34,694 bases of DNA from a virus (Duplodnaviria; Heunggongvirae; Uroviricota; Caudoviricetes), in IMG/VR virus record IMGVR_UViG_2534682325_000013. One strand, written 5' to 3'. The notes below the pieces were generated by a model that ran no database searches, was not told the origin of the DNA, and saw only the letters and a program-made list of their open reading frames with translations. Both the position numbers and the translations under genes were made by a program. This document shows positions 8,217 through 12,577 of the stretch, in pieces (the first letter of the stretch is position 1; each line of letters opens with the position of its first letter).

Positions 8217-8440
8217 GATGTATCAACACGATTCAACAATACCCGATATTTATTCCATGCCTCCAGCAACGATCTTTCTTCCTCCGTTGCGATTTCCAGA
8301 TCTACAGCATCCTGCAGTGGCGCAATATACTCACTGAATTCCTGGATGTAGAACTGTGTGGTGACGGTCTTCCAGCCATTCGGCTCCTGCTGTATCGCAG
8401 CATACCAGGCTATTTCAATATCGCTATGCTGCGGCAGCAT
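8209..8440 (-). pseudogene. Tail fibre assembly (Tfa-family) gene remnant, tfaX-like, split by the IS66-family insertion; its 3' remainder lies at about 5683-5766
   Basis: [78 protein letters not shown]... shares the C-terminal Tfa motif with the intact tfa at 11996-12577. Reading frame runs into the IS inverted repeat. Unrelated N-terminus suggests an older fusion or remnant. Confidence 0.7.
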
Positions 8441-8496
8441 TTAACCCCTTGTAATTCATCGCCATAATTGATTTAATTCACAAATAAAACTATAAC

Positions 8497-9165
8497 ATGG
8501 TGAAATTAATGAAAAAAAACACAGATGATGGGGCTAAAATTTACACACCACTTACCCTAAAGCTTTATGACTGGTGGGTTTTGGGAGTATCAAATCGTCT
8601 TGCATGGGGATGTCCTACAAAGGAACACCTTCTTCCACACTTTCTGGAACATTTAGGTAACAACCATCTGGATATTGGTGTTGGAACTGGGTTTTACCTT
8701 ACTCACGTACCTGAGAGTAGTCTGATATCTTTAATGGATTTGAACGAAGCTAGCCTGAACGCGGCATCTACAAGGGCTGGGGAATCAAAAATTAAACATA
8801 AAATTAGCCATGATGTTTTTGAACCTTATCCCGCGGCGTTACATGGTCAATTTGATTCCATTTCCATGTTTTACCTTCTTCACTGCCTGCCTGGAAATAT
8901 ATCTACAAAAAGCTGTGTAATACGCAATGCGGCGCAGGCCTTAACTGACGATGGAACTCTATACGGAGCCACAATTCTTGGCGATGGAGTTGTGCACAAT
9001 AGCTTCGGTCAAAAACTGATGCGCATTTACAATCAGAAAGGCATCTTTTCAAACACAAAAGATTCCGAAGAAGGCTTAACACATATACTCTCAGAGCATT
9101 TCGAGAATGTTAAAACCAAGGTTCAAGGTACTGTAGTAATGTTTTCCGCTTCAGGGAAAAAATAG
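8497..9165 (+). CDS. Class I SAM-dependent methyltransferase, ybcY-like, apparently intact
   Basis: 222 aa with glycine-rich SAM-binding motif LDIGVGTGFY. Position between two tfa-like sequences matches where I recall ybcY sits in K-12 DLP12. Start may be the second ATG (MKKNTDD...). Confidence 0.7.
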   Translation: MVKLMKKNTDDGAKIYTPLTLKLYDWWVLGVSNRLAWGCPTKEHLLPHFLEHLGNNHLDIGVGTGFYLTHVPESSLISLMDLNEASLNAASTRAGESKIKHKISHDVFEPYPAALHGQFDSISMFYLLHCLPGNISTKSCVIRNAAQALTDDGTLYGATILGDGVVHNSFGQKLMRIYNQKGIFSNTKDSEEGLTHILSEHFENVKTKVQGTVVMFSASGKK

Positions 9166-9172
9166 CATCCAA

Positions 9173-9235
9173 CCGCAGCACGTTCTTGCATACGCCGTGT
9201 CTGCGGTTTAATTTTTACTCTCAAATATTGTAGTT
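9173..9235 (+). terminator. Possible terminator after the methyltransferase gene
   Basis: Inverted repeat aaccgcag...ctgcggtt with a long loop, followed by taatttttac. Loop is long, so only moderate support. Confidence 0.35.
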
Positions 9236-9662
9236 AAGTACAATAATGATTCCTGTGGCTATATAGATGTTTTTGTAATTAGTCCTTAAGATAAAATTTC
9301 TCTATTTATCCAAGAAACAGACTTCATTAGGAAGAGTCGTAAAAACATTAACAACTACCGCCGTGTAATTAAATTATTTTTTAGAATGTTCTGATTGAGA
9401 AAAACAACGCCATACACATCAAAAGATATAGAAATGTAAATTTAGATTTATTAATCTTTTGAGTTACAACCTAAACTTTCCGTTAATCACCAAGATATCA
9501 ACAGATTATACTCACTGAGTACACATTTTTACAATTGCTATTTCTCACATTAAGATGCGCATACCAATCTCTTATTTGACACTTTCTTATTTGTTACTAG
9601 AGTTAATTGGGTGCTGACAAGGCACATGTTATTTACAATTTGAAAATCAGAGGAGAAATGAT

Positions 9663-9845
9663 ATGACCGAACATCGTGGCGGTGCAGGTAATTTCGCTGA
9701 AGATCGACAAAAAGCTTCTGACGCTGGTCGTAAAGGCGGCCAACATAGTGGCGGTAATTTTAAAAACGATCCACAAAGAGCATCAGAAGCAGGGAAAAAA
9801 GGTGGTCAGAATAGCCATGGTGGCGGCCGTAAATCTGACTCTTAA
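9663..9845 (+). CDS. yciG: YciG-like general stress protein with KGG repeats
   Basis: 60 aa, MTEHRGGAGNFAEDRQKASDAGRKGGQHSGGNFKNDPQRASEAGKKGGQNSHGGGRKSDS; close to E. coli YciG as I recall it. Good SD (agaggag) 7 nt upstream. First gene of a four-gene same-strand cluster. Confidence 0.85.
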   Translation: MTEHRGGAGNFAEDRQKASDAGRKGGQHSGGNFKNDPQRASEAGKKGGQNSHGGGRKSDS

Positions 9846-9882
9846 TTTATCACCCCCTACATTCGTGAATAACTGAAGCTAA

Positions 9883-10424: not shown

Positions 10425-10460
10425 ACTATAGACTTCAATTTCTTTTAGGATAAACAGATT

Positions 10461-10967
10461 ATGAATAGAATTGAACATTACCATGACTGGCTTCGTGATG
10501 CACATGCGATGGAAAAACAAGCTGAAAAAATGCTTGAGTCTATGGCCAGCCGGATAGAAAACTATCCTGAGTTACGTTCCAGAATTGAGCAGCACATTAG
10601 CGAAACAAAGAACCAGCTTTCACAGCTTGAAAGCATACTTGATCGTAATAATATTTCGCGCTCTGTCATTAAAGACTCTATGAGTAAAATGGCCGCGTTT
10701 GGACAATCCATTGGTGGAATTTTTCCATCTGATGAAATTGTCAAAGGTTCGATCAGTGGCTATGTGTTCGAACAATTTGAAATTGCGTGTTACACATCTC
10801 TTCTCGCAGCAGCCAAAAATGCGGGTGATACAGCTTCAGTACCCATTATTGAAGCAATTCTTAATGAAGAAAAACAAATGGCTGAATGGCTTCTTAACCA
10901 TATTCCTGACACCACTGAGCAATTCATGGTCAGATCTGAAATTGATGGAGTTGAAGCCAAAAAATAA
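10461..10967 (+). CDS. yciE: YciE-like protein (DUF892, ferritin-like)
   Basis: 168 aa, MNRIEHYHDWLRDAHAMEKQAEKMLESMASRIENYPEL...; paralogous to the preceding gene; 36-nt spacing. Confidence 0.85.
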   Translation: MNRIEHYHDWLRDAHAMEKQAEKMLESMASRIENYPELRSRIEQHISETKNQLSQLESILDRNNISRSVIKDSMSKMAAFGQSIGGIFPSDEIVKGSISGYVFEQFEIACYTSLLAAAKNAGDTASVPIIEAILNEEKQMAEWLLNHIPDTTEQFMVRSEIDGVEAKK

Positions 10968-10985
10968 TTCTTTTGAGGAGGCATT

Positions 10986-11876
10986 ATGTTTAGACACGTG
11001 AAAAAACTTCAATATACAGTACGTGTAAGTGAGCCAAACCCAGGCTTGGCTAATCTACTCTTAGAACAATTCGGTGGGCCACAGGGTGAGCTTGCAGCAG
11101 CATGCCGATACTTCACTCAAGGCTTAAGTGATGAAGATGCAGGCCGAAGGGATATGCTGATGGACATAGCAACAGAAGAACTAAGTCATCTCGAAATTAT
11201 TGGTTCTCTTGTTGGTATGCTCAACAAAGGTGCAAAAGGAGCACTTGCTGAAGGAACTGAGAATGAAGCTGAGCTTTACCGTTCCTTAACTCAAAATGGC
11301 AATGATAGCCATATAACTTCTCTCCTCTACGGAGGAGGCCCAGCATTAACTAATTCAGCTGGAGTACCCTGGACTGCAGCTTATGTTGATACTATTGGCG
11401 AAGTCACGGCCGATCTTCGTTCAAATATTGCAGCTGAAGCTCGGGCAAAGATCATTTACGAACGTCTCATTAATGTTACTGATGATCCTGGAGTAAAAGA
11501 CACTCTGGCATTTTTAATGACCCGGGAAGCAGCACACATGCTTTCATTTGAAAAAGCATTACATTCAATTCGTAACACCTTTCCACCAGGAAAATTACCA
11601 CCACTTGAGAAATACAAAAACGTATATTACAACATGTCAGAAGGTGAAGACGTCAGAGGTAGTTGGAACAGTGATGAAAACTTTGACTATGTTTCCGATC
11701 CAGTTTCAGCGGTTGACGGTGGGGATGGGAAGGCCTCGATAAATCTTTCGACCAAGCAAGAAGCCATGATAAAAGCTATGGCAACAAGGTTGAAATCCCA
11801 TGAAGACATCAATCCTGTCACTGGCGCTGAGCTTGCTGAAGGAGAACCACAAACAAAGATAAATAGTAAAAACTAA
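10986..11876 (+). CDS. katN: Manganese-containing (non-haem) catalase, KatN-like
   Basis: 296 aa. N-terminal four-helix-bundle region with conserved Glu/His metal ligands (EELSHLE, REAAHMLSFE), typical of the Mn-catalase family. Strong SD (gaggagg); 18 nt after the yciE-like gene. Confidence 0.8.
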   Translation: MFRHVKKLQYTVRVSEPNPGLANLLLEQFGGPQGELAAACRYFTQGLSDEDAGRRDMLMDIATEELSHLEIIGSLVGMLNKGAKGALAEGTENEAELYRSLTQNGNDSHITSLLYGGGPALTNSAGVPWTAAYVDTIGEVTADLRSNIAAEARAKIIYERLINVTDDPGVKDTLAFLMTREAAHMLSFEKALHSIRNTFPPGKLPPLEKYKNVYYNMSEGEDVRGSWNSDENFDYVSDPVSAVDGGDGKASINLSTKQEAMIKAMATRLKSHEDINPVTGAELAEGEPQTKINSKN

Positions 11877-11963
11877 TTATCTTCTGGTATTTAGCTATCC
11901 CTCATAAGTTAATTGCCGCTGAGATATCCTAAGCTCTAGCCTCTGAAAATACATTTATATTTC

Positions 11964-11997
11964 GAAGCCCGCGATATTTTAAGCGGGCTTTTATTTT
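11964..11997. terminator. Hairpin terminator between convergent katN-like (+) and tfa (-) genes, possibly bidirectional
   Basis: aagcccgc / gcgggctt stem with ~10-nt loop, followed by ttatttt on the plus strand; A/T-rich on the other side too. Confidence 0.55.
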
Positions 11998-12577
11998 AAA
12001 CTTCAGGTATTACAGGCCACTCAATATCAGGTGCAGTTGATGTATCAACACGGTTCAGCAACACCCGATACTTTTTCCAGGCTTCCAGCAATGAGGTTTC
12101 TTCCTCCGTTGCGATTTCCAGATCTACAGCATCCTGAAGTGGCGCAATATGCTCACTGGCTACCTGCATCAGGCTGTTTTTTGTTTCTTCCGCCTCCCGG
12201 ATCCGGAACAGTTTTTCTGCTTCTGCATCTTTCACCCAGGCTGTGCCGTTCCACTTCTGAAACTCCCCTTCCGGCGATAACCAGGTAACATTTTCCGGTA
12301 ATGAGCCGAGTTCAGAAATAAATAACGCGTCGCCGGAAGCCACGTCATAAACCGTTTTACCCCGATGATCTTCAACGAGATGCCACGATGACTCATCACT
12401 GTTGAAAACAGCCACGAAGCCAGCCGGAATATCTGGCGGTGCAATATAGGTACTGTTTGCTGGCAGACCTGTATGAGGCGGAATATATGCGTCACCTTCA
12501 CCAATAAATTCATTAGTTCCGGTCAGCAGATTATAAATTTTTATGGTCCGTGGTTGTTCACTCATTCTGAATGCCAT
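11996..12577 (-). CDS. tfa: Tail fibre assembly protein Tfa
   Basis: 193 aa; start ATG overlaps the stf stop (TAATG). C-terminal motif [18 protein letters not shown]...[18 protein letters not shown] typical of lambda-like Tfa. Confidence 0.9.

Follow-up and report, generated by a model that had tools for sequence, protein, structure and literature searches.

The window analysed here is the whole 34,694-nt stretch of the IMG/VR record IMGVR_UViG_2534682325_000013. It contains the tail end of a lambdoid prophage, in which J, lom, stf and tfa lie in this order on the minus strand and are followed by plus-strand cargo, an insertion sequence (IS), an alpha/beta hydrolase gene and ompT. This study concerns two direct repeats of about 130 bp at this end, one in the 3' part of the tail fibre assembly gene tfa and the other in a fragment called tfaX', and the cargo that lies between them (Table 1). 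The interval is occupied by ybcY, which codes for a class I S-adenosylmethionine (SAM)-dependent methyltransferase, and by four genes for a KGG-repeat protein, two DUF892 proteins and a manganese (Mn) catalase (9663-11876), and it also takes in 31 N-terminal codons of TfaX' and the final 14 codons of tfa. E. coli strain 7784, which came from cattle faeces, has a chromosome 99.9% identical to window positions 1678-27650, and the segment 8150-12650 was recovered at 99.9-100% identity in this strain and in one O157:H7 genome. Genome counts refer to 5426 complete E. coli genomes; the whole 8150-12650 arrangement is found in 345 of them.

The two segments form the sole 132-nt direct-repeat family detected by a repeat search of the window (88% identity, spacing 3822 nt). 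Compared base by base, they are identical at 116 of 132 positions and their similarity breaks off sharply at both edges. The longest exact run between them is 40 bp and occurs exactly twice in the 34.7-kb window, against 0 occurrences expected in shuffled sequences. Both copies are minus-strand coding sequence inside open reading frames (ORFs) that match the Pfam family Caudo_TAP, and the repeat therefore reflects homology and not chance. These comparisons bear out what a preliminary description of the locus had reported, namely two highly similar tfa segments of the same orientation with a common core of about 39 bp (to which one T has to be added) and, between them, a methyltransferase gene and a yci/catalase operon, as the ORFs and domain matches confirm. 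The only inverted pair that spans the block is of 21 nt (81% identity), with one arm within the IS, and no Chi site, searched as a possible stimulator of recombination, is present in the window. A transposon or composite element bounded by IS copies was also considered and rejected: the only IS is ISEc8, which has its own 8-bp duplication and lies outside the block.

The intact Tfa aligned with the Caudo_TAP profile (PF02413) over positions 1-131 of 131 (E = 3.4e-45) and is a full-length member of this family. TfaX' is not, since its ORF of 82 amino acids (aa; 8192-8440) matched positions 75-121 of 131 only (E = 4e-18). By BLASTP, only residues 27-77 of TfaX' align with Tfa (78% identity) and its codons 1-26 have no Tfa homology. 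Judged on these alignments, tfaX' is a 3' fragment and not a gene. Its 3' tail has received a clean insertion of ISEc8, with an 8-bp target duplication, GAGCTACT, at 5759-5766 and 8209-8216. After in silico removal of ISEc8 and of one target duplicate, an ORF of 101 aa was restored, which is nearly identical to the ORF annotated in phage ev243. In related strains without ISEc8, 260 bp separate the hydrolase stop codon from the repeat. No full-length tfaX was found by tblastn in 50,697 phage records, and no longer relative of TfaX' by a word-indexed search of 5.8 billion proteins with its N-terminal 47 aa. The matches in both searches were fragments of at most 101 aa, all from E. coli, Shigella or their phages.

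The limits of the operon were then read from alignments with relatives that lack it. On the left, homology to these relatives runs to 9206, just past a terminator-like hairpin 3' of ybcY, and on the right the border is at 12013/12014, within the last tfa codons (EWP). With these limits, the operon is a 2.8-kb cassette, yciGFE-katN, that replaced about 35 bp; both its ends fall outside the two repeats. In K-12 prophage DLP12 and in strain OkiPb01681, tfa, the methyltransferase gene and tfaX' are found in the same order with both repeats and without the yci/katN operon. This empty state of the slot, detected with a 501-nt spanning probe covered to at least 80%, is present in 3791 genomes (and also in locus L002) and the katN block in 382, each time adjoining a tfa 3' end; the cassette is thus an optional insert between genes that adjoin each other in relatives, as is typical of a moron. 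In strain EcPF20, the slot holds pin-ydfK-ynaM with boundaries identical to those of the katN and empty states, so that three states have two boundaries in common, to within a few bases. In a set of 80 ybcY-bearing prophage loci from IMG/VR, the slot is empty with a full-length tfa 3' segment (hereafter the linker) in 24 and with a truncated one in about 29, and it holds the pin cassette in 8, katN in 2 and other, non-tfa sequence in 12. In locus L096 and 11 IMG/VR loci resembling it, the hairpin is a variant (...GTGCTACGG), and the AT-rich sequence that comes after it corresponds to none of tfa, katN and pin. A scan of viral contigs for distant contexts of ybcY gave only loci at 99% identity or more.

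The viable lambda-like phages ev243 and PhiR26_1 carry ybcY, the 101-aa TfaX' ORF, the hydrolase gene and ompT between their tail-fibre genes and int. The tail-fibre module of ev243 is different and has no complete tfa, and a truncated tfa 3' remnant persists beside the hairpin. Taken together, these loci show that tfa-hairpin-ybcY-tfaX'-hydrolase-ompT is an old and common backbone and that yciGFE-katN is a later cassette. The idea that the 3.8-kb block was a single acquisition bracketed by its own scars is contradicted by the existence of tfa-ybcY-tfaX' without yci/katN in DLP12, in the 3791 genomes and in viable phages. Nor are the repeats insertion boundaries, the operon ending at the hairpin (about 9206/9207) and at the EWP codons, and being found elsewhere without ybcY or tfaX'. 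The last five Tfa codons and the stop come from the katN cassette. With katN in the slot, Tfa ends in EWP-VIPEV (11996-12013), with an empty slot in EWP-TNPVRE and with the pin cassette in EWP-ALP, each followed by the stop codon. As these last five or six codons and the stop belong to the downstream cassette, the C-terminal tail of Tfa varies with the cargo; the tail of lambda Tfa differs as well.

The base composition of the cassette is deviant, as expected of a moron: its guanine plus cytosine (GC) content is 39%, and that of the region upstream of the operon 29%, versus 47% for tfa, 55% for stf and 53% for the window. Promoter-like sites are predicted from the sequence at 9528-9603. In the AT-rich region upstream of yciG, a 22-nt palindrome (9419-9462, 82% complementary, arms without gap) could be a regulator or H-NS-related site. 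Searches with NCBIfam gave no useful names for the window, the Mn catalase match being below cutoff. In E. coli O157:H7 EDL933, katN (z1921) lies on the cryptic prophage CP-933X, is controlled by RpoS, OxyR and H-NS, and its product is secreted in a manner dependent on the type VI secretion system (Wan et al. 2017, PMC5363993); the low GC content of the cassette and its upstream region fits the H-NS repression published there. Many O157:H7 genomes carry the katN block at 100% identity. Strain N96 has the cassette in a prophage, at its att-lambda end, following stf, a gene for a DUF4376 protein and a tfa 3' pseudogene fragment, and in strain A34 it lies inside a myovirus-type prophage. Both are devoid of ybcY and tfaX'; homology to the window begins at the hairpin on the left and, on the right, takes in about 150 bp of the tfa 3' end and stops within or at the edge of the conserved segment. 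The nearest relatives of the operon in phage and plasmid collections, from Salmonella, Klebsiella and Enterobacter, have about 71-75% nucleotide identity, and the best KatN in species-representative genomes, from Kosakonia, has 87% amino-acid identity; no close match that could be the donor was found in these phage, plasmid and species-representative genome collections.

The linker copies were typed at the 16 positions that distinguish the two copies of the window, X denoting the tfaX' type and T the tfa type. The tfaX' copy is of type X throughout in strain 7784 (locus L001, identical to the window), OkiPb01681, EcPF20, ev243, PhiR26_1 and RM13745. In K-12, its pattern is TTTTTTT/XXXXXXXXX (the slash marks the change of type) and its downstream neighbour is appY, not the hydrolase gene, which suggests that appY may have reached K-12 by another exchange in the same linker. 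The K-12 DLP12 tfaX' (locus L003, 5006-5137) is itself a mosaic with a tfa-type 3' portion, the rest being X-type, and it has seven private substitutions. Among the 80 IMG/VR loci, the copy at the tfaX' position falls into three main mosaic patterns and minor variants. The copies of the segment are thus shown to be mosaics with crossovers at several positions. Stranded tfa 3' fragments lie behind an S74-type stf (in RM13745, and decayed in phage Ayreon) and also behind stf and DUF4376 (in N96 and GB089), showing that the segment persists as a fragment even behind tail-fibre cassettes without a complete tfa.

A hybrid copy was encountered in a few genomes. In N96 and GB089, a single copy with the pattern XXXXXXXXX/TTTTTT has its crossover within the 40-bp core; the X type runs on into the hydrolase flank and the T type runs on upstream. 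The corresponding junction, stf-DUF4376-tfa'-hydrolase-ompT without ybcY, is present in exactly five of the 5426 genomes, always behind the stf-DUF4376 tail-fibre cassette and with private substitutions in the core. No precursor of these five prophages, of the form DUF4376-tfa'-...-ybcY-tfaX', was found. That sequence has been exchanged across the core is shown by these five natural hybrids. Strain N96 carries two prophages (loci L010 and L013) with one type of stf-DUF4376-tfa' module and different cargo past the linker, the katN operon at att-lambda and hydrolase-ompT elsewhere, which is likely an example of exchange between co-resident prophages.

These results are best accounted for, with good confidence in our view, if the repeats correspond to the conserved 3'-terminal 130 bp or so of two tfa genes that close the late operon of a DLP12/CP-933X-type lambdoid prophage, the non-essential DNA past tfa having been filled with independently acquired moron units and the tfa 3' end serving as a recombination joint. 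Along the minus strand, the order of units is tfa, yciGFE-katN cassette, hairpin, ybcY, tfaX', ISEc8 and hydrolase-ompT. The tfa 3' segment would act as a linker for homologous recombination, by which tail-fibre cassettes are exchanged upstream and cargo downstream, because its DNA sequence is conserved across many co-resident prophages. An older tfa would once have adjoined hydrolase-ompT; an illegitimate joint probably truncated it around codon 26 as a unit with ...tfa-hairpin-ybcY at its end landed upstream, which would have created the direct repeat, with tfaX' as what remained after one such exchange. Recombination between the two copies in the window could still delete ybcY and the operon, as an event that would be rare and that does not appear to be fixed in this lineage.

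Several points weigh against this reading. The same 50,697 phage records and 5.8 billion proteins that gave no full-length tfaX gave no ancestor without ybcY carrying an intact tfaX either, and the origin of the tandem arrangement is consequently one that we infer. For the five hybrids, deletion and inter-prophage exchange would look alike when no precursor is at hand. The part played by homologous recombination is deduced from mosaic patterns, and the joints between tail-fibre cassettes and linker are at several different points inside the linker, so that illegitimate events must contribute too.

A more ambitious extension of the proposal, which we regard as doubtful, is that the slot between the ybcY hairpin and the last tfa codons may be a defined and reusable one, possibly hairpin-directed, with at least three states and probably a fourth, and that the tfa 3' segment of about 130 bp may be kept mainly as a portable linker. 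If true, it would provide a predictable entry point for virulence and stress cargo.

The preliminary description can be read as supposing that ybcY and yciGFE-katN entered together in one event within tfa, that the repeats are the footprint of this event and that homologous recombination between them could excise the block. This is improbable as a whole, and its single-step part is already refuted. The direct repeats with their 40-bp exact core agree with it, as does the hybrid single copy with its crossover in the core in five genomes. Against it stand the arrangement without the operon as the common state, the operon limits at the hairpin and the tfa stop region, and the operons free of ybcY and tfaX'. 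As regards excision, the minimal processing segment for the RecA pathways of E. coli is about 25-30 bp, a length that the exact core exceeds, and the orientation is direct; RecA-dependent deletion at 88% identity with an exact stretch of 40 bp is possible and should be rare and opposed by mismatch repair. A synthetic deletion junction of 664 nt (hydrolase flank, hybrid repeat and lambda-type tfa body) was covered to 80% or more in none of the 5426 genomes, so that the deletion is not seen in the O157-type background with lambda-type tfa. The predicted type of junction does exist in the five genomes, behind another tail-fibre cassette, and given this other background, the private core substitutions and the missing precursor, these hybrids may reflect inter-prophage exchange and not simple deletion. 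A single tfa had also been expected in relatives devoid of the cargo: those without yci/katN keep both tfa copies, which goes part of the way to refuting the expectation. What survives of the original suggestion of recombination within tfa is that the tfa 3' end is a recombination joint, as the mosaics and hybrids indicate; the cargo was not acquired there in one step.

A site-specific slot, with the hairpin or the core as the target of a dedicated recombinase or strand-transfer enzyme that inserts cassettes, is still less probable. It would explain the two boundaries shared by three different cassettes. The hairpin (folding free energy, dG, -18.1 kcal/mol; z -3.7) is present in all ybcY loci examined and accompanies the katN cassette into the unrelated prophages of N96 and A34, and it was found at none of 80 chromosomal yciGFE-katN loci of other genera. 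However, neither the empty nor the katN state has a recombinase associated with it, the boundaries are the ends of sequence shared between phages, as homologous exchange predicts, and the hairpin is plausibly an ordinary terminator.

Two further schemes are hardly credible. A tandem duplication of tfa in one phage, after which cargo was inserted between the two genes and the distal one decayed, would yield two same-orientation copies of one gene family 3.8 kb apart, but the copies are 88% identical whereas each type is 97-100% conserved across strains, their homology is limited to about 150 bp, codons 1-26 of TfaX' match no Tfa, similar stranded fragments occur behind unrelated tail-fibre cassettes and no two full-length near-identical tandem tfa genes were seen among the loci examined. 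That tfaX' could have been the second tfa in an invertible tail-fibre switch of the Pin/Gin type, since decayed, is evoked by the pin recombinase cassette found in the same slot in some strains and by the inverted tfa genes nearby in A34, but invertase crossover sites are rejected because the repeats are direct and not inverted, 8200-12600 contains no invertase or stf' fragment, no stf' variable-end fragment lies beside tfaX', pin is one of three alternative slot contents with shared boundaries, and no relative was seen with an inverted full-length tfaX', an stf C-terminal segment and crossover sites.

Table 1. Features at the tail end of the prophage, in window coordinates.
Feature	Position	Strand	Remarks
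ompT	2877-3830		Cargo unit with alpha/beta hydrolase
alpha/beta hydrolase	4017-5501	+	With ompT, next cargo unit past tfaX'
tfaX' ORF, displaced 3' tail	5685-5758	-	In silico IS removal
ISEc8, IS66 family, 2442 bp	5767-8208	-	Simple insertion
tfaX' remnant, proximal part	8209-8440	-	ORF cut near 3' end by ISEc8
Repeat copy 1, X-type linker; Tfa-homologous part of stranded tfaX' fragment	8216-8347	-	Repeat search, BLASTP
40-bp exact core, copy 1	8275-8314	unassigned	Identical to 12097-12136
ybcY, class I SAM-dependent methyltransferase, 222 aa	8497-9165	+	Intact here, frameshifted in K-12
Terminator-like hairpin 3' of ybcY, CCGCAGCACG...CGTGTCTGCGG	9171-9208	+	Left boundary of cargo slot
yciGFE-katN cassette, 2.8 kb, 39% GC	9207-12013	+	Present/absent between hairpin and tfa 3' end
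Operon upstream region, 29% GC, promoter-like sites	9209-9662	+	Sequence composition
yciG-like KGG-repeat general stress protein (z1924)	9663-9845	+	Domain match
yciF-like DUF892 ferritin-like protein	9924-10424	+	Domain match
yciE-like DUF892 ferritin-like protein	10461-10967	+	Domain match
katN, Mn catalase (z1921)	10986-11876	+	Domain match
GC-stem and T-run hairpin after katN, AAGCCCGC...GCGGGCTTTTATTTT	11964-11997	+	Overlaps tfa stop codon; read from sequence
tfa, intact lambda-type tail fibre assembly gene, 193 aa	11996-12577	-	Caudo_TAP (PF02413)
Repeat copy 2, T-type linker; conserved 3' coding part of intact tfa	12038-12169	-	Repeat search, Caudo_TAP match
40-bp exact core, copy 2	12097-12136	unassigned	Natural hybrids of N96 and GB089 cross over here
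stf, side tail fibre gene, 973 aa	12577-15498	-	Upstream of tfa, late operon
lom	15557-16156		Minus-strand tail order J-lom-stf-tfa

Two other observations were made in the window. Within stf, four direct-repeat copies of about 40 nt (12691-12922; 60-78% identical to the reference copy, spacing 42, 108 and 42 nt) code for a repeated motif near the C-terminus of the side tail fibre. To the left of 1678 (1-1677), the window diverges from strain 7784, and two overlapping minus-strand ORFs at this edge, 1294-1620 (108 aa, HTH_Tnp_1) and 407-1297 (296 aa, rve integrase core), look like an IS3-family element, probably IS629, as usual in O157:H7.

The elements of the locus are already annotated or published, as tfaD/ybcY/tfaX in K-12 and as the katN operon of CP-933X. 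The tfaD-ybcY-tfaX pseudogene cluster of DLP12, next to appY and ompT (tfaD being the K-12 tfa locus), resembles the window in gene order, orientation, hairpin and both repeats, at about 93-97% DNA identity. It differs by its empty slot, its frameshifted ybcY and its 5'-truncated tfaD, ybcY and tfa being intact in the window; in K-12, tfaX' is interrupted by an internal stop, is of type T in its 3' portion and has appY downstream, whereas that of the window is split by ISEc8 and has the hydrolase gene downstream. The K-12 names ybcY and tfaX, and the divergent promoters of these two genes, are from earlier work (PMC3946193). The z1921-z1924 genes of CP-933X are by their description the same operon, with yciG/F/E homologues and a Mn catalase on a prophage; that publication is about the function of KatN, and its subject does not extend to where the insertion begins and ends, to the tfa repeats or to what else the slot can hold (PMC5363993). 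Phage lambda has the same order J-lom-stf-tfa, and residues 27-75 of TfaX' are 78% identical to lambda Tfa, but in lambda tfa is present once, b-region genes follow it on the opposite strand, and ybcY and tfaX' are absent.

Morons and mosaic joints of lambdoid phages were reportedly described by Juhala and Hendrix and by Clark and co-workers, and horizontal exchange of tail-fibre genes is said to have been documented by Haggard-Ljungquist in 1992 and Sandmeier in 1994. The locus shares with lambdoid morons a putatively self-contained transcription unit whose base composition is deviant and which separates genes that adjoin each other in relatives, and with mosaic joints an exchange at short conserved sequences bordering modules. 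It differs in that two or three cargo units are stacked and that the 3' fragment of a structural gene recurs as the linker. The mechanism is standard lambdoid mosaicism with moron stacking, ordinary in E. coli O157:H7, and the current view of phage mosaicism is unchanged. The finding can serve for the annotation of prophage ends and the prediction of cargo position. It shows a route by which a stress/virulence operon came into O157:H7, through a swappable slot just after the lambdoid tail-fibre genes. The KatN catalase encoded there is reported to aid the survival of enterohaemorrhagic E. coli in macrophages, and its operon moves between prophages via a short conserved tfa segment of which most E. 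coli genomes hold several copies.

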